Origin: a virus
Taxonomy: Duplodnaviria > Caudoviricetes
Direction: 5' to 3' (one strand)
Virus record (IMG/VR): IMGVR_UViG_3300017774_002751
Location: 1-28,335 of that record
Length of the DNA stretch: 28,335 nt
Shown here: positions 23,399 to 28,335 of the stretch, one piece after another
Layout: every line of letters begins with the position of its first letter
Position numbering within the stretch: the first letter of the stretch is position 1
Notes under the pieces: model-generated
Databases searched by the model: none
What the model saw: the letters and a program-made list of their open reading frames with translations, nothing else
Told to the model about the DNA's origin: nothing
Position numbers and translations under genes: made by a program

Positions 23399-23536
23399 TT
23401 ACTTCTTGCCCTTAGCCATCGGCTTGGCAGCAGCCTTTGTCATCTTCATCGGCTTACCAGTCTTGGCAGCTTCCTTCTTGGCAGCAGCCATACCAGCACC
23501 ACCATAACCAAACATCTTACCACCAACCTTAGGCAT
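23399..23536 (-). CDS. 45-aa Lys/Ala-rich basic peptide
   Basis: Not in the ORF track. GAGGAG RBS then MPKVGGKMFGYGGAGMAAAKKEAAKTGKPMKMTKAAAKPMAKGKK*, ending 1 nt before the next start. Confidence 0.8.
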   Translation of the reverse strand: MPKVGGKMFGYGGAGMAAAKKEAAKTGKPMKMTKAAAKPMAKGKK

Positions 23537-23549
23537 CACAGTCTCCTCT

Positions 23550-23680
23550 CACCAAAAACAACATCGAAAGATTCAGAGGGGAAAAAAATATCAGAGCAGG
23601 TGCTCGAAGGTTTTCGGGGAAAAATACATACCGAGGACCACTTGCCATACCACCAGCCCCGTTTTTGGACCCCCACCCCC
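23550..23680. other. Candidate packaging-initiation (pac)/terminus region
   Basis: Probably non-coding gap right after terS with ACCCCCACCCCC (23669-80) and a direct repeat GGGGA5-7TA (23578-90, 23616-26). Confidence 0.35.
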
Positions 23681-24073
23681 TCAACTAAGGTCAATTTGCA
23701 CCGAGATCTCGCCGGAAACACGATGGTCTACGCGGTCAGGAGCCCTCAAGCCCGCACGATTGAGCAAATCTACAGCCGCTTCAAGGCGAACCTTGTCACT
23801 ACGTGAGCTTTCTGCCAGCCGCTCAACTACATCCAATGCCCTTGGAGCGACCACTGCTACACGACCCATGGTCCGCCTGTATATCTCGGACAACACTTTG
23901 TCTTGCTTGAGCAATCTCGAACCCAGTGTTCGTGCAGAGTCCTGCGAGTAACCCGCCTCAATTGCAGCTGCTTCTATACGCCCACCATTGGTCACATACG
24001 CATCGACAAACCTGTCCTGGAGGTCTGTCAGCGGACCGTTGGGTGTTTCAGCAACGTAAGGCACATTACCCAT
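23681..24073 (-). CDS. terS: Terminase small subunit
   Basis: LT..Q.RFV.AY..NGG....AAIEAGYS..SA...GSRLL HTH motif. Start revised to ATG 24073 because GTG 24136 lies inside the predicted promoter. Confidence 0.88.
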   Translation of the reverse strand: MGNVPYVAETPNGPLTDLQDRFVDAYVTNGGRIEAAAIEAGYSQDSARTLGSRLLKQDKVLSEIYRRTMGRVAVVAPRALDVVERLAESSRSDKVRLEAAVDLLNRAGLRAPDRVDHRVSGEISVQIDLS

Positions 24074-24114
24074 GGGAGTTCTCTTGTGATTGTTACTGCT
24101 GCGCGCGCGACCCT

Positions 24115-24150
24115 TATGTGACCCCTTCCAAAACACCTGTCAATGCACGA
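24115..24150 (-). promoter_or_regulatory. Putative terS promoter: TCGTGCATTGACA-N17-CACATA (degenerate TAGTCCATTG box overlapping a perfect -35)
   Basis: TTGACA at 24143-24138 with 17-nt spacer; 8/10 match to the repeated late motif. Confidence 0.55.
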
Positions 24151-24186
24151 AACTGATAGTGACACGCGCCACTCAAAGGGAGAGGG

Positions 24187-24471
24187 CTATGCGCCCTCTT
24201 CCTCCAGTTGCCATATCAGCATGGAAGACGCTTCGGCATAATCTCCCGGAGTCATTCCCCGAACATTCTCGTCAAGTTCCGCTCTTGTGTTTTTGCGATT
24301 GGCTGCGATCTCCTTCTTGATCCGAGGGATTTGGCGAGCGCACCATGCTGGGTCCCGAATCTCATTCGCAGAGAAATGCAGCTGCCACCAATCACCCAGC
24401 TCATCGATCAGCTCTTCCTTTGCAGCCTGCCGGACGTGTTGATTGCGAAGGCTGATGTAATAGATGTTCAT
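24187..24471 (-). CDS. Hypothetical protein (94 aa)
   Basis: Start revised to ATG 24471 (GGAG RBS; MNIYYISLRNQ...). The upstream extension crosses the structured non-coding DNA. Confidence 0.65.
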   Translation of the reverse strand: MNIYYISLRNQHVRQAAKEELIDELGDWWQLHFSANEIRDPAWCARQIPRIKKEIAANRKNTRAELDENVRGMTPGDYAEASSMLIWQLEEEGA

Positions 24472-24493
24472 GACCAATCTCCATGCTACCCGT

Positions 24494-24733
24494 GCGCTAA
24501 TCACACGGTGGCGTCGGGTTTCACAGCCGCAGCCCTGTGTCAGGGATGTCGCAAGGCGACACCGCAACGCGGTTTCCTTGACGCAGGGACCGGATGTGAC
24601 ACCCTTAGACGTCCCGAGTGATGCGCCAGTGAGGCCGAGAGCATGATGCCGCAAAGCGAATAGCATCATGCTTCGACAGGCCGAACAACTCGTATCGCAG
24701 TGATCCTGATAAACGTCGGTTTCCAAGACTGAC
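24494..24733 (+). other. Left fold-back element (multi-hairpin; G-T wobbles on the + strand)
   Basis: 14-bp stem 24533-46/24575-88 closing two triloop hairpins, an extended lower stem, and further hairpins at 24618-24698 and 24715-24733. Confidence 0.75.
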
Positions 24734-24761
24734 AATCAACACAGATATAGAACAGACAGGC

Positions 24762-25025
24762 TGGTGCAGACCGCCTTGAACATGGGCAACCATTGTTTGC
24801 TGGCAGTTCCATGTGCCCACAGGAACCGCACCGGCAGCACCCTTCTTGCACGGGTTCGGAACCTGTCTCAAGGGAACCCCCTTCGGGGGTGCCGCCAAGG
24901 CGTCACCCTTGAGCCAGAACCACGAACGCCCTGCTACGGGGTGCTACGCCGGGGGCGGTCCCCGGTGGTCACACGGAGAACTACCATGACTTCAGTTGCT
25001 GCCATGTCCAAGGCGATCAACACCA
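24762..25025 (-). other. Right fold-back element (about 260-nt imperfect inverted repeat; G-T wobbles on the - strand)
   Basis: About ten nested helices from CTCAAGGG/CCCTTGAG out to TGGTG/CACCA, with a branched apex. Confidence 0.8.
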
Positions 25026-25489
25026 TTGCGGAGTTTATGACTGAGATTGAAGAGTATCAGACGAAGGAAGGACAAATCGTTCGTCGTAACAAGCTCGGTT
25101 ACGCACAGAAGCGCATCCTCAACGGCATCTGCTACGCCGCCGCAATGACGCTTCAGACCAGCAAGACCAGCCACGATGAGGCTGTTGCCAAGGTTCGCCT
25201 GGCAGCCAAGTCGCACCGGGGTGACGAGCTTTCCGAGGTTCAGTTGACCCGCGCAATCGAGTGGGCCCAGCGGATCGAGACGCAGATCGCCCACCTCGAG
25301 CAAGTGCTTGAAGCTGCAACATACCGCTACGAGCAACACACTGACGAACGCTTCGTCACTCCGACCATCAAGCCTCAGGCAGAACGTCGGTTTCAGAGCG
25401 CGGCACTCGATGCTGCCAAGCGCTACGGCATCGACGGTGAGATGACACGCGGTGGCGGTGTTGAGGTGGCTTCGGAGGAGGCCGCCTGA
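24986..25489 (+). CDS. First early gene, hypothetical helical/coiled-coil protein (167 aa)
   Basis: Start revised to ATG 24986 (GGAGA RBS); followed by a strong terminator. Confidence 0.8.
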   Translation: MTSVAAMSKAINTIAEFMTEIEEYQTKEGQIVRRNKLGYAQKRILNGICYAAAMTLQTSKTSHDEAVAKVRLAAKSHRGDELSEVQLTRAIEWAQRIETQIAHLEQVLEAATYRYEQHTDERFVTPTIKPQAERRFQSAALDAAKRYGIDGEMTRGGGVEVASEEAA

Positions 25490-25496
25490 CACCCAC

Positions 25497-25525
25497 GGGG
25501 AGGGCTTCGGCTCTCCCCTTTTTTT
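25497..25525 (+). terminator. Rho-independent terminator
   Basis: GGGGAGGGC-TTCG-GCTCTCCCC followed by T7. Confidence 0.92.
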
Positions 25526-25542
25526 GCACCAGGAGAAACATC

Positions 25543-25794
25543 ATGACTCAACTATTGTCTCTTAACCATCAGATGAAACTCAACGCTTCATTAGCAGCAA
25601 GCGACCACGCTTTAGTCACTGCTCGTGCCAAGCACCGTCGCGTCGTTGATACCACTGTCGATCTGTTACGTGACGCACTCGATGCGCTTGAAGCCGATGA
25701 TCAAACTGAATTCTCTGGATACATTCGTCAGTGCATCGAGTCTGCCATAAGCAACTTAGCAAAGTCCAAGCCAGAACCTGGAGCCTGGACATAA
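25543..25794 (+). CDS. Hypothetical early protein (83 aa)
   Basis: AGGAG RBS and ATG. Confidence 0.75.
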   Translation: MTQLLSLNHQMKLNASLAASDHALVTARAKHRRVVDTTVDLLRDALDALEADDQTEFSGYIRQCIESAISNLAKSKPEPGAWT

Positions 25795-25833
25795 CTCGCC
25801 GCCCCGCCTGCGGCGCTCTGAGGAGAAAACATC

Positions 25834-25923
25834 ATGAGCACTGCTTACTACATCATGGTCGAAGGCACCCTAGTCGTTGCGTTTGCTTACGCTTGGATCA
25901 GCATACTTTCAGGGAGGAAGTGA
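25834..25923 (+). CDS. 29-aa single-pass membrane peptide
   Basis: Not in the ORF track. GAGGAG RBS; MSTAYYIMVEGTLVVAFAYAWISILSGRK*; TGATG overlap with the next gene. Confidence 0.6.
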   Translation: MSTAYYIMVEGTLVVAFAYAWISILSGRK

Positions 25924-26195
25924 TGGGGAGAATGAAAGCACTAGAGCTCGAGGCATTCGAGCGGCAGTCCCAGGAGGACGCTTGGCTTGCCGATGTCTAC
26001 GAGAACATTGAGCGCGAGGAGATTGAGAAACTCCTAGCCATCCAAGATCAAGTGAAAGAGGCGCTACAAATTGCAGATGCTTTGATGTTGCACGTCAACA
26101 TTCAGCAGATGCTGCCGTCCGCCATCTATAACTTGTCGAACAAGTTGCGCGATCAGCTCGAGCGTAGCCTCGATGTTGTTAACCGCTGCCTGTAA
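25923..26195 (+). CDS. Hypothetical early protein (90 aa)
   Basis: Start revised to ATG 25923 (GGAGG RBS; MGRMKALELE...). Confidence 0.75.
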   Translation: MGRMKALELEAFERQSQEDAWLADVYENIEREEIEKLLAIQDQVKEALQIADALMLHVNIQQMLPSAIYNLSNKLRDQLERSLDVVNRCL

Positions 26196-26207
26196 CTGGA
26201 GCAGATC

Positions 26208-26402
26208 ATGAGCCAGAAGTTTAAGCTCGAGGTGGAGTGCGGCAATGACGCGTTCGCAAACTACCTATACGAGTTGCCACGCATCATGCGTCAGGTAGCA
26301 GAACGTATCGAAGCAGGCGTTGACCAGGGCAAATGCTACGATTGGAACGGCAACGTGGTTGGCCAGTTCCGCATCTACACTGGAAGGGAGAGAAACAAAT
26401 GA
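26208..26402 (+). CDS. Conserved small phage protein
   Basis: F.L......N.AF...E..RI...VA..IE.G...G...D.NGN.VG pattern; GGAG RBS. Confidence 0.75.
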   Translation: MSQKFKLEVECGNDAFANYLYELPRIMRQVAERIEAGVDQGKCYDWNGNVVGQFRIYTGRERNK

Positions 26403-26749
26403 AAGCTATCTTGATTGATCCGTCTGCCAGAGAGGTGACGGAGGTTGAATACGACGGCAACTGGCGGCAGATCAGCAAGCTTATTGGCTGCGATCTGTTT
26501 GCGCCTGTCGGCCTTAGCAGTGGCGACACCATCTACGTTGATGACGAAGGCTTGTTTAAGGAAGAGACTGCCTTCTTCATGCACCGTCATTATCCTCAGC
26601 CTCTCGCTGGCAAGGGGTTAATCCTTGGCACGGATGGCGATGGAGAAAGCGTGATGCCCGAGCTAACTCTGCTCGAACACAAGGCACAGATTGCCTTCGT
26701 CACCCCGTTGAAAATCAACGGTCGAGTTCTTTGGTTGCCTGCAGATTAA
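26399..26749 (+). CDS. DUF3846-like protein
   Basis: Start revised to ATG 26399 (ATGA overlap); MKAILIDP, IYVDDEGL and PLAG.GLILG.D.DGE. Confidence 0.8.
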   Translation: MKAILIDPSAREVTEVEYDGNWRQISKLIGCDLFAPVGLSSGDTIYVDDEGLFKEETAFFMHRHYPQPLAGKGLILGTDGDGESVMPELTLLEHKAQIAFVTPLKINGRVLWLPAD

Positions 26750-26785
26750 CCCCCTACCCAAACCACACATTCGGAGGAGAATACA

Positions 26786-27037
26786 ATGACTTACGAGAAT
26801 CGCTACGTCATCCTGGTTAAGTGCGGATGGGACAACTACATGTTGCCCTTGAATGACATGAACCTAAGCATCGTGCGTTGCATGATAGAGGACGCTCGTG
26901 CTGTCGATTATGAATACATGTCAACTGATGGTTACGTGTATTTCCCCAAGGCAAAGAACGAAATTTCGTTCGAGATTAAGTCGGTGCAGTGGGCAGACAG
27001 CAAGCCCGAGAAGCCGGTTGAACCAACCGAGAAGTAG
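26786..27037 (+). CDS. Hypothetical protein (83 aa)
   Basis: GGAGGAG RBS and ATG. Confidence 0.75.
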   Translation: MTYENRYVILVKCGWDNYMLPLNDMNLSIVRCMIEDARAVDYEYMSTDGYVYFPKAKNEISFEIKSVQWADSKPEKPVEPTEK

Positions 27038-27041
27038 TAAC

Positions 27042-27070
27042 TTGTCATGCCTGCGCCTTTGCAGTAAACC
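27042..27070 (+). promoter_or_regulatory. Putative sigma70 promoter TTGTCA-N17-TAAACC
   Basis: Canonical 17-nt spacing; overlaps a 20-bp inverted repeat upstream of the HTH gene. Confidence 0.55.
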
Positions 27071-27087
27071 AACTGCGGAGGCGCAGC

Positions 27088-27339
27088 ATGAAACTCATAT
27101 CATACATCGACCAGTTGGAAGTGCTTGCCGATAGCCAACACATCAGGCTCAAGCAAGCCTTCCTTCAGGCCGGTATCCCAGACAGCACGTATTATCGCGT
27201 GATGAATGGCCAAGACTTGCGCTTCGACACGGCACTGAAAGTTGCCAATGCAATCAGGAGCGCAAGCGATGCAACTACCACCGATCAGAGTTGTTCATAC
27301 ACGACAGGTCAGTTCGGAAGAGCAGAAGTTTTACGCTGA
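27088..27339 (+). CDS. Cro/XRE-like HTH protein
   Basis: LKQAF..AGIPDSTYYRVMNG.DLRFDTA.KVA.AI; GGAGG RBS. Confidence 0.75.
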   Translation: MKLISYIDQLEVLADSQHIRLKQAFLQAGIPDSTYYRVMNGQDLRFDTALKVANAIRSASDATTTDQSCSYTTGQFGRAEVLR

Positions 27340-27529
27340 TCTTATCGGTGAGCTCGTATCCAAACGGAAGCAACTTGGCATGAGCCAAGCTGAACTGAAT
27401 GACCGTCTTGGTATGAGCGAGGCAATGGTTGCCAAGTGGGAAAGCATGGCCCGACTTCCTGGTGCGTTCTTTCTGATGTGCTGGGCCAAAGCATTAGGGA
27501 TCAAGTTCGTTGCGAAGGAAGAAGCATGA
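27269..27529 (+). CDS. XRE-family HTH transcriptional regulator
   Basis: Start revised to ATG 27269 (AGGAG RBS); RKQLGMSQAEL...LGMS...VAKWE...R.P......WA.ALG. Confidence 0.85.
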   Translation: MQLPPIRVVHTRQVSSEEQKFYADLIGELVSKRKQLGMSQAELNDRLGMSEAMVAKWESMARLPGAFFLMCWAKALGIKFVAKEEA

Positions 27530-28032
27530 GTCAAAGCCAAAAGTTGAGCGAGTCCGAGGACCTATCTTCAAGCAGTGCACCTGTTGCGGAGACACCCGAA
27601 ACGCCTGTCTCAGTCAAAACAGTGGCGAAACGTGGTGGTGTTCGCCGTGCTGGAAAGGCTGGAACTCGCAAGAATAAATACAACGCAGCCGGTGAGCGCA
27701 TCGATGGCATGTGGTTTGCTAGTGCTGCCGAAGGCAAACGCTATCTTCAGCTTAAGTCTATGATGAAACGTAACATGATCGACAACCTACGTTGTCAGGT
27801 CAAGCTGCCATGCGTGGTCAATAACCGATTGATCTGCACATACATTGCCGACTTTGCCTACGTTGTCATTGATGATCGAGGCGTTGGCATACGTTCCATC
27901 TGGGAGGATGTGAAGGGCATGGTCACGGACGTTTACAAGATCAAGAAGAAGCTCGTCCAGGCTGTGCATGGCATCGAGATTCTAGAGATACCCGGTAATT
28001 CGATAGCCAATTGGGCTGACAAACCGGGGTAA
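27526..28032 (+). CDS. DUF1064-family PD-(D/E)XK nuclease
   Basis: Start revised to ATG 27526 (ATGA overlap); NKYNA...IDG..FAS..E..RY, TYIADF.Y and EDVKG..T.VYKIKKKL. Confidence 0.85.
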   Translation: MSQSQKLSESEDLSSSSAPVAETPETPVSVKTVAKRGGVRRAGKAGTRKNKYNAAGERIDGMWFASAAEGKRYLQLKSMMKRNMIDNLRCQVKLPCVVNNRLICTYIADFAYVVIDDRGVGIRSIWEDVKGMVTDVYKIKKKLVQAVHGIEILEIPGNSIANWADKPG

Positions 28033-28066
28033 AAACTGGGGAGCCCGCTACCACACAGGCTCCCCA
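28031..28066 (-). terminator. Hairpin oriented as a minus-strand terminator upstream of the replication gene
   Basis: Perfect 9-bp stem TGGGGAGCC(28037-45)/GGCTCCCCA(28058-66), preceded on + by AAAAA. Confidence 0.45.
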
Positions 28067-28104
28067 AGGTCCCACACACGGAAGGGTCCAGCAATGGAGG
28101 AAGA

Positions 28105-28335
28105 ATGTCCATAGAGATGCTGAACTGGGCTTTCCAGTTACCACTCGATAGCCCTGCTGACAAGGCTGTCCTAATAGCACTCGCAAATCATGCCGATCCA
28201 ACAGGTGACTGTTGGCCATCGGTTGCCCGTGTCTGCCTATATACCTCACTGTCTGAGCGGGCCGTTCGCATGGCACTGCGTCGGCTCGAGGAGCGGGGCC
28301 TTGTCACCACCACCCACAAGATAGGACGTAGCTCC
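28105..28335 (+). CDS. Phage replication initiator, N-terminal winged HTH (HTH_36-like); truncated by the window end
   Basis: Not in the ORF track. MSIEMLNWAFQLPLDSPADKAVLIALANHADPTGDCWPSVARVCLYTSLSERAVRMALRRLEERGLV...; K.VL..LA..AD..G.CWPS...S.R.V...L..LE..GL is the typical motif. Confidence 0.85.
   Translation, partial: MSIEMLNWAFQLPLDSPADKAVLIALANHADPTGDCWPSVARVCLYTSLSERAVRMALRRLEERGLVTTTHKIGRSS

Follow-up and report, generated by a model that had tools for sequence, protein, structure and literature searches.

A conserved fold-back over the start of the first early gene of a podophage as a candidate single-stranded DNA promoter

The stretch of DNA analyzed here (the window, 28,335 nt) comprises most of a podophage genome, with the genes for terminase, portal, capsid, tail and internal virion proteins on the - strand, up to position 24136, and small early genes on the + strand, from 24986 rightward. 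The space between these divergent arms is filled by two long, imperfect fold-backs, which raises the question of what such structures do next to the earliest genes of a double-stranded DNA phage. A preliminary description of the sequence had taken them for a mirror-image pair of strand-specific elements and had offered four readings: (a) promoters that fire only on single-stranded DNA, (b) paired priming sites similar to ssiA/ssiB of RSF1010, (c) folded overhangs at a genome end, and (d) convergent antisense RNAs. The nearest cultured phage is Pelagibacter phage EXVC031P Hodr, whose portal and capsid proteins are 60.6% and 58.7% identical to those of the window, and which carries the same first-early-gene family together with a rod-shaped fold-back. 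The sequencing runs holding this stretch are mostly freshwater metagenomes (24 runs were covered, all as contigs), and the G+C content of the window is 53%. One relative resides on a contig binned as Nitrospira, an assignment that a binning effect may explain. The features discussed below are collected in Table 1.

Table 1. Features in and around the gap between the late and early arms (window coordinates).
Feature	Coordinates	Strand	Remarks
Terminase small subunit gene (terS)	23681..24136	-	First late-arm gene in relatives
Predicted ordinary late promoter of terS, TTGACA-17-CACATA	24115..24143	-	Outside the insertion
Polymorphic 568-bp insertion with 94-aa ORF and left element	24160..24727		Strain comparison
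94-aa ORF	24187..24471	-	Three homolog clusters
Left rod, 133 nt	24494..24626	+ (template of 94-aa ORF)	Predicted fold slightly better on +
Separate hairpin, 11-bp perfect stem	24637..24675	+	Inside the insertion
A-rich spacer, starting with a CTGA(C/T) motif	24728..24761		Motif recurs left of the rod in many relatives
Right element, conserved rod-shaped fold-back	24762..25025	- (template of first early gene)	Folds, top window score, tracking and covariation in relatives
-10 position, CAAGAA, 17 nt after TTGAGA	24843..24848	-	Largely unpaired (internal loop) in the predicted fold; putative function
Upper stem	24860..24921	-	GGTT opposite GGTT (24918-24921 with 24860-24863), giving G.T wobbles
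-35-like TTGAGA on the fold-back (non-template mimic) arm, paired with the template by the apex	24866..24871	-	Putative function
Two apex mini-hairpins, C-GAA-G and C-TT-G loops on the template strand	24876..24902	-	
Duplex sense counterpart, TTGAGC	24909..24914	+	-77 from the ATG; no (T/C)A at spacing 15-18
Small hairpin just past the predicted start site (~24945)	24947..24967	+	Likely 5'-terminal stem-loop of the early mRNA; putative role
Shine-Dalgarno GGAGA of first early gene	24975..24979	+	Within the rod
First early gene, 167 aa, helical hairpin fold	24986..25489	+	
Intrinsic-terminator-like site closing the first early gene	25497..25525	+	

The two fold-backs of the window

Folding of both elements was scored on each strand, with DNA and RNA parameters, against 200 dinucleotide shuffles. 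The left element yielded z-scores (DNA/RNA) of -7.2/-7.6 on the + strand and -5.2/-4.3 on the - strand, and the right element -6.4/-7.3 on the + strand and -9.3/-10.7 on the - strand. Each element hence folds best on the strand that the preliminary description had named for it (left +, right -), but the strand asymmetry is one of degree, with both strands of both elements folding far better than their shuffles. A strand-neutral scan of the whole window ranked the right element first among its inverted repeats, with a score of 79, and the left element second, with 54, where the median was 19 and the 99th percentile 30. All 12 oppositions previously listed within the helices are indeed G-T or A-C, each located between Watson-Crick pairs, and the two -35-like hexamers lie where they had been placed (TTGAGA on the - strand at 24871-24866, TTGACG on the + strand at 24578-24583). 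Rfam 15 covariance models and tRNA scans returned no match beyond a single chance one (19 bits versus a cut-off of 100), and the one site found when 23400-28335 was scanned with the sigma-70 consensus falls outside the gap.

The right element is not intergenic, as had been assumed. Homologs of the 167-aa early protein begin at the same methionine (24986) and, since the first early gene starts there, the 3' arm of the rod on the + strand covers its ribosome site, from the Shine-Dalgarno sequence through the ATG, and about 13 codons. An N-terminal extension of the gene through the rod, where the reading frame is open from 24764 to 25489, was considered and rejected because the upstream frame differs in the closest relatives. 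The 167-aa protein matches no Pfam, PHROG, NCBIfam or PADLOC family, no solved structure at E 0.001 and no usable Atlas entry; its matches in BFVD are four uncharacterised phage proteins. The small hairpin that follows the predicted start site is present in most relatives, Hodr and L060 being the exceptions. In close strains (runs X13 and X19), the apex of the rod (24874-24942) is swapped for a different sequence of 72-78 letters, with the flanking stem kept. Contigs from the four RNA-library runs extend over the early gene and none over 24255-24839, and one contig of run X20 starts at 24973; this pattern is at most a weak hint, given that the shares are 0.06-0.08, that the source may be DNA, that strains may lack the insertion and that hairpins copy badly.

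The left element belongs, together with the 94-aa ORF, to a polymorphic insertion. The insertion is missing from two contigs with a 96% identical early protein, and one contig of run X19 passes over it (joint 24159 to 24728); it is present in runs X3, X5 and X13. A mirror-image pair is therefore unsupported as a feature of the family, and the reading as ssiA/ssiB-like paired priming sites is weakened. The left half had also been treated as one element. Its preference for the + strand stands, but it resolves into a 133-nt rod plus separate hairpins, with a small strand difference (-45.4 kcal/mol and three G.T pairs on the + strand versus -40.6 kcal/mol and none on the - strand) and with AAG, AAC and AAA loops, not GNA. 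On the fold-back arm of this rod, TTGACG is followed after 16 nt by CACCCT (24600-24605), which is preceded by TG (TGa-CACCCT); the duplex counterpart is CTGACA, 72 nt before the ATG of the 94-aa ORF. The left rod ends short of the ribosome site and leaves the Shine-Dalgarno sequence uncovered. For the 94-aa ORF, three homolog clusters were found, but no viral contig and no family. A pattern describing the left closing stem was found at 40 viral loci, none of them among the blastn matches to the insertion (E 1), all of which are early-gene loci. Probably, the left element is another promoter of the kind proposed below for the right rod, shorter than that rod and acquired together with its own gene. 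Copies of the CTGA(C/T) motif, often two or three, occur left of the rod base in relatives (-235 to -315), and the insertion of the window lies between two of them (24152-24158 and 24728-24734), possibly a terminase or recombination site.

Distribution of the right rod and its link to one gene start

Alignment scans with the early protein identified 24 viral and 32 metagenome loci, and 47 of these 56 were examined, leaving aside the window's own contig, seven duplicates of viral contigs and one locus without upstream DNA. Together with the window and Hodr, and minus one exact copy of the window, the 47 loci form 22 groups, or 23 representatives when L073 is included. A rod is present in 18 of the 23 non-redundant representatives, with its apex about 95-130 nt before the ATG. 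In each of the 18, including two ties, the Shine-Dalgarno sequence and first codons are matched best by the far arm of the same rod, typically from -20 to +40, and this is the case in none of the five rod-less loci. No comparable tracking was detected at the other ORF starts inspected (27 in the window, 37 in Hodr and 19 in part of relative G005). The lineages are related, and these counts are hence not independent. Covariation, which the preliminary description had put forward as a check, was found in an alignment of 11 related sequences: 19 of 48 pairs have changed on both sides, 94.3% of cells are paired and 0 of 500 shuffles reach as high, in a test that is inflated by the relatedness of the sequences. 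Two of the G.T wobbles of the upper stem are kept in all 11.

The association of rod and gene extends to distant members. The early protein of Hodr is only 16% identical by alignment, yet it matches the family profile at E 3e-15, and the Hodr rod scores 133. On a protein tree with a midpoint root and a long Hodr branch, the five rod-less loci are nested among rod-bearing lineages and require two changes. A pattern of the right-rod core matched only seven viral contigs that were already in the survey and five genomes with neither rod nor gene. No sequence similar to the right rod was found among 72,556 plasmids (blastn, E 0.1) or 50,697 phage records, and no rod in MEP301, Vibrio phage 237E40-1 or 9 kb of Greip. 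The HTVC010P-type pelagiphages (in the accessible portion of PMC8477408) and Hodr share divergent early and late arms with the window phage and, for the HTVC010P type, that source likewise reports no encoded RNA or DNA polymerase. HTVC010P differs in lacking the early-gene family, and the window in its 53% G+C and freshwater origin; although the gap of HTVC010P scores 73, it was left out of the count because of its AT-rich sequence, the missing gene family and a divergent ORF that starts in the gap. The HTVC010P record opens (L075:3-287) with an ORF that is not annotated; it is about 94 codons long, has a Shine-Dalgarno sequence and diverges from gp64.

Strand preference, loops and promoter-like boxes

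With DNA parameters and eight shuffles each, 17 of 18 rods exceed their shuffles by more on the template than on the sense strand, the margin being narrow in Hodr and L012. Isolated wobbles, counted on a strand-neutral alignment, point the same way, with 78 on the template strand (A.C on the sense strand) versus 16 sense-strand G.T, against an early-arm background of 363 to 291; by locus, 14 rods lean towards the template strand, two towards the sense strand and two are tied. The consensus fold scores -49.8 on the template strand versus -39.0 on the sense strand. Among apex triloops on stems of at least four pairs, GNA accounts for 11 of 15 when read on the template strand and for 1 of 15 when read on the sense strand, compared with 18 and 28 of 344 in the background; seven of the 18 rods have neither a GNA nor a C-TT-G apex loop. 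According to the part of PMC13037366 that was available, GNA was the only one of the DNA triloops tested to form mini-hairpins, and the RNA counterpart was much less stable. Hodr, the sole cultured member, has a near-perfect rod with wobbles 0 to 0 and no GNA apex loop.

These observations bear on two explanations that place the function of the rod in RNA. In the first, long + transcripts would hide the Shine-Dalgarno sequence and start codon in a hairpin, and only short transcripts from an internal promoter would be translated, as described for T4 e, soc, 49 and I-TevI (PMC3014915, in the portion available). The rod shares with these T4 hairpins an upstream arm complementary to the Shine-Dalgarno sequence and start codon and a promoter, here putative, inside the repeat. 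The tracking of the Shine-Dalgarno sequence and first codons by the far arm is what this explanation expects, the sense RNA folds well (z = -7.3), the predicted unpairing of -14 to +15 is lower in long than in short RNA (0.35 versus 0.48 in the window, 0.19 versus 0.48 in Hodr), and Hodr is strand-neutral. The wobbles, however, are mostly A.C on the sense strand, the apex carries triloops and not RNA tetraloops, so that both features favor the opposite strand and DNA; moreover, the rod has no co-directional upstream gene, and the rods have no good -10 on their sense strand. As the main function of the rod, an mRNA hairpin is distinctly unlikely. Even so, the sense strand greatly exceeds its shuffles in folding as well, and in a long transcript it conceals the ribosome site; such hiding, predicted to operate in whatever long transcript is made, may serve as an additional function. 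The other explanation, a structured antisense RNA made from the - strand against the translation start of the early gene, appears extremely improbable: the best RNA fold is on that strand (z = -10.7) and its 5' part is complementary to the Shine-Dalgarno sequence and first codons, but this part is locked within the stem, the loops are triloops, with no UNCG or GNRA on the - strand in 22 groups, and no Rfam family matches. Reading (d) is hence a poor fit to the loops.

Promoter-like boxes were located relative to the stem. Of the 18 rods, 17 have a stem-paired TTG or TTT at -66 to -82 relative to the ATG; L059 has no paired TTG. Further counts were made on the 15 rods with a clean register; L032 and L073, in which the register is lost at side hairpins, were dropped and, if counted, would add a worse hexamer and no (T/C)A. 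In seven of the 15, the hexamer of the fold-back arm resembles TTGACA more closely than its duplex sense counterpart does; in eight the two are equal, and in none is the fold-back hexamer worse. A (T/C)A at -12/-11, located 15-18 nt further on, occurs on the fold-back arm in 15/15 and on the duplex sense strand in 3/15, with chance values of 0.38 and 0.33 for a search that permitted four spacings. In the window, the fold-back arm reads TTGAGA-17-CAAGAA, with AAGAA unpaired in the predicted fold. A T at -7 is found on the fold-back arm in only two of the 15 rods. The predicted late promoters of the family have TTGAC(A/G) in 20 of 23 cases, followed at 16-18 nt by (T/C)A in 15 of these 20 and with a T at -7 in 5 of 20, and the putative fold-back promoters and these predicted ordinary ones look alike in their missing T. 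A T at -7 is not known as a feature of alphaproteobacterial promoters.

Some relatives have replaced the rod. In the rod-less L020, L021, L052 and L029, TTGACT-17-(C/T)ATTCT is found at -69 to -75, within flanks that resemble the rod arm of L023. As far as sequence comparison goes, this natural swap of the rod for what looks like an ordinary promoter is the strongest hint that the rod has a promoter role. L060 combines a weaker ordinary promoter near the gene with a displaced rod, the fold-back arm of which reads TTGCAA-16-CATAGT versus GTGCAA-16-CATTTC on the sense strand. In L020, L021 and L029, the region about -80 to -60 from the ATG holds a perfect palindrome, GTATAGT-TG-ACTATAC, that overlaps with the -35 of the ordinary promoter and constitutes an operator candidate common to two distant early-protein lineages. 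The template strand of L020, L021, L029 and L052 retains clustered short hairpins at about -150 to -380; C-TT-G loops occur in some of these, and the cluster may be another element or a decayed one.

In duplex DNA the boxes of the fold-back arm point left and could form an ordinary leftward promoter. The rod might then be the relic of an inverted duplication of promoter and gene start, homogenised by template switching, a process that can correct quasi-palindromes. In sequence, the far arm amounts to a degenerate version of the 5' region of the sense strand, at times with Shine-Dalgarno sequence and ATG, and its boxes are oriented towards terS in duplex DNA. Further left, however, 20 of 23 representatives have a separate leftward TTGAC(A/G), and neutral homogenisation predicts neither the strand bias nor the GNA loops, which makes this origin very improbable.

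A putative single-strand promoter and its relation to known systems

The comparative evidence (strand bias, DNA-type loops, paired TTG, fold-dependent -12/-11 and promoter replacement) supports reading (a) for the right element, although not for a mirror-image pair. We propose, with a probability of about 0.5, that the right element is a Frpo-like single-stranded DNA promoter for the host sigma-70 RNA polymerase, positioned over the start of the first early gene. Promoters of this type are established in conjugative plasmids, whose DNA enters as one strand. When exposed, the template (-) strand would fold back on itself, with the far arm replacing the missing partner strand, and the fold would present the host polymerase with a paired -35 and a pre-opened -10. 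Transcription would begin near 24945 and proceed down the stem, and the re-annealing arm would displace the new RNA from the template, freeing the ribosome site. On bare single-stranded DNA the RNA would otherwise be left hybridised, which could explain why the stem extends past the Shine-Dalgarno sequence and first codons. The same RNA could also prime second-strand synthesis. If this is correct, tailed double-stranded DNA phages have a regulated single-stranded stage and time expression by the state of their own DNA, and a stem that spans the ribosome site would provide one solution to the problem of how a transcript of a single-stranded template can be translated. The existence of a cultured member (Hodr, on Pelagibacter HTCC1062) and of natural rod-less variants makes the idea directly testable. 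No description of a host-polymerase single-strand promoter in a tailed phage with double-stranded DNA was found in the literature searched, which consisted of titles and the beginnings of abstracts and included few subscription papers.

A truly single strand appears to be needed, since supercoil-driven extrusion of a cruciform from duplex DNA was considered and rejected as too costly (about 252 kcal/mol versus 85-182 gained, with a 34-kb circle and the energy constant as assumptions). Relatives of the window phage encode a lambda-exonuclease-family nuclease, ERF, SSB and ArdC, which makes single-stranded intermediates plausible. The most speculative step of the proposal is how the strand would become exposed, either by 5'-to-3' resection of the entering genome end or on the lagging side of a replication fork. 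The genome end is near terS in many phages. With an end near terS, resection of the early end would expose the - strand and that of the late end the + strand, so that both elements would fit; a leftward replication fork would likewise expose the - strand. Tentatively, and with considerable doubt, the fold-back promoter may even act as a sensor of attack on the entering DNA end, with a protective 167-aa protein being made only while the DNA is single-stranded and the left cassette behaving likewise at the opposite end.

Proximity to a genome end also underlies reading (c), in which the rod would be a folded 3' overhang or nicked end that protects or self-primes the terminus, or a terminase signal, and the left element would serve the other strand. 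In members of the 23-representative set with enough flank, the rod is adjacent to terS; in several relatives pairing is best in the basal stem; the rod base is flanked by CTGA(C/T) repeats; and the 3' arm of both elements faces the spacer. The contigs, however, continue through the gap with no strand-switch joint listed, a feature that contigs tend to drop; the left element is optional; and the fixed TTG, the (T/C)A and the promoter replacement are left unexplained. We consider an end structure decidedly improbable. A rod serving mainly as a single-strand origin, in which host RNA polymerase or primase would prime the folded - strand, either to repair ends or to start lagging-strand synthesis, and gene expression would come second, is also unlikely. 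The strand and loop evidence fits it equally; mini-hairpins are present in the priming sites of G4 and RSF1010 (PMC13037366, available part), and Frpo transcripts are able to prime (bioRxiv 10.64898/2026.01.09.698686, available part). No primase or polymerase was identified among the 36 proteins of the incomplete window and 14 scanned proteins of relatives, whose genes are partly covered. An origin, on the other hand, need not track the ribosome site of one gene as the rod does, the rod-less relatives place an ordinary promoter at the same distance from the ATG, and the opposite-strand partner is optional.

Among known systems, the proposed fold-back promoter has most in common with the Frpo/ssi family of class 2-3 single-strand promoters (F, ColIb-P9, pESBL), described in the accessible parts of PMC12672017 and PMC11541004 as large stem-loops that rebuild -35 and -10 and are active on the incoming strand. 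Shared features are a stem-loop of a few hundred bases on the template strand before early genes and neighbours such as SSB and ArdC, found in relatives of the window phage. The stem may likewise rebuild -35 and -10 positions, with TTG/TTT paired in 17/18 and (T/C)A in 15/15, but T at -7 in only 2/15. The right rod differs in lacking a blastn match to any plasmid record, in occurring as one copy per genome in a tailed double-stranded DNA podophage with no conjugative strand or leading region, in a -10 without T at -7, and in being a promoter predicted from sequence; its stem also covers the ribosome site and first codons, the extent of Frpo stems not being given in the text compared. Judged by these comparisons, the right rod likely works like Frpo, yet it lies outside the Frpo family by sequence and location.

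Coliphage N4 (PMC13037366 and PMC4496689, in the parts available) also has GNA mini-hairpins on the template strand before the earliest genes of a double-stranded DNA podophage, but these hairpins are short and are read by a 3,500-aa virion RNA polymerase. The phage rod is about 265 nt long, has sigma-70-type boxes and is predicted to be too costly to extrude fully from duplex, and sequence searches of the scanned proteins, including virion proteins of 1554 and 715 aa, gave no RNA polymerase hit or motif. The priming hairpins of RSF1010 ssiA/ssiB and G4 (PMC13037366, same portion) share GNA-type mini-hairpins in DNA that acts single-stranded. They differ from the rod, which is far longer, is bound to one gene start and has an optional opposite-strand partner; no cognate RepB' primase was found among the same 36 window proteins and 14 proteins of relatives.

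Several observations concern the surrounding genes. ArdC is encoded in the early arm of Hodr and G005, G005 also encodes a 578-aa ParB-N protein, and L008 has a weak DUF932 match (coordinates L011:13573-14457, L072:3131-3985 and 1162-2898, and L008:1034-2113); ArdC, ParB-N and DUF932 are gene types of plasmid leading regions. The small early genes at 25523-25828 and 26196-26386 are gained and lost as cassettes among co-occurring strains, with joints in runs X3, X5 and X19. Upstream of a small HTH gene, TTGTCA-17-TAAACC (27038-27066) is likely an ordinary promoter, again without T at -7. On the late side, a CGCGCG run (24100-24109, - strand) follows the predicted late promoter and is present in several relatives.
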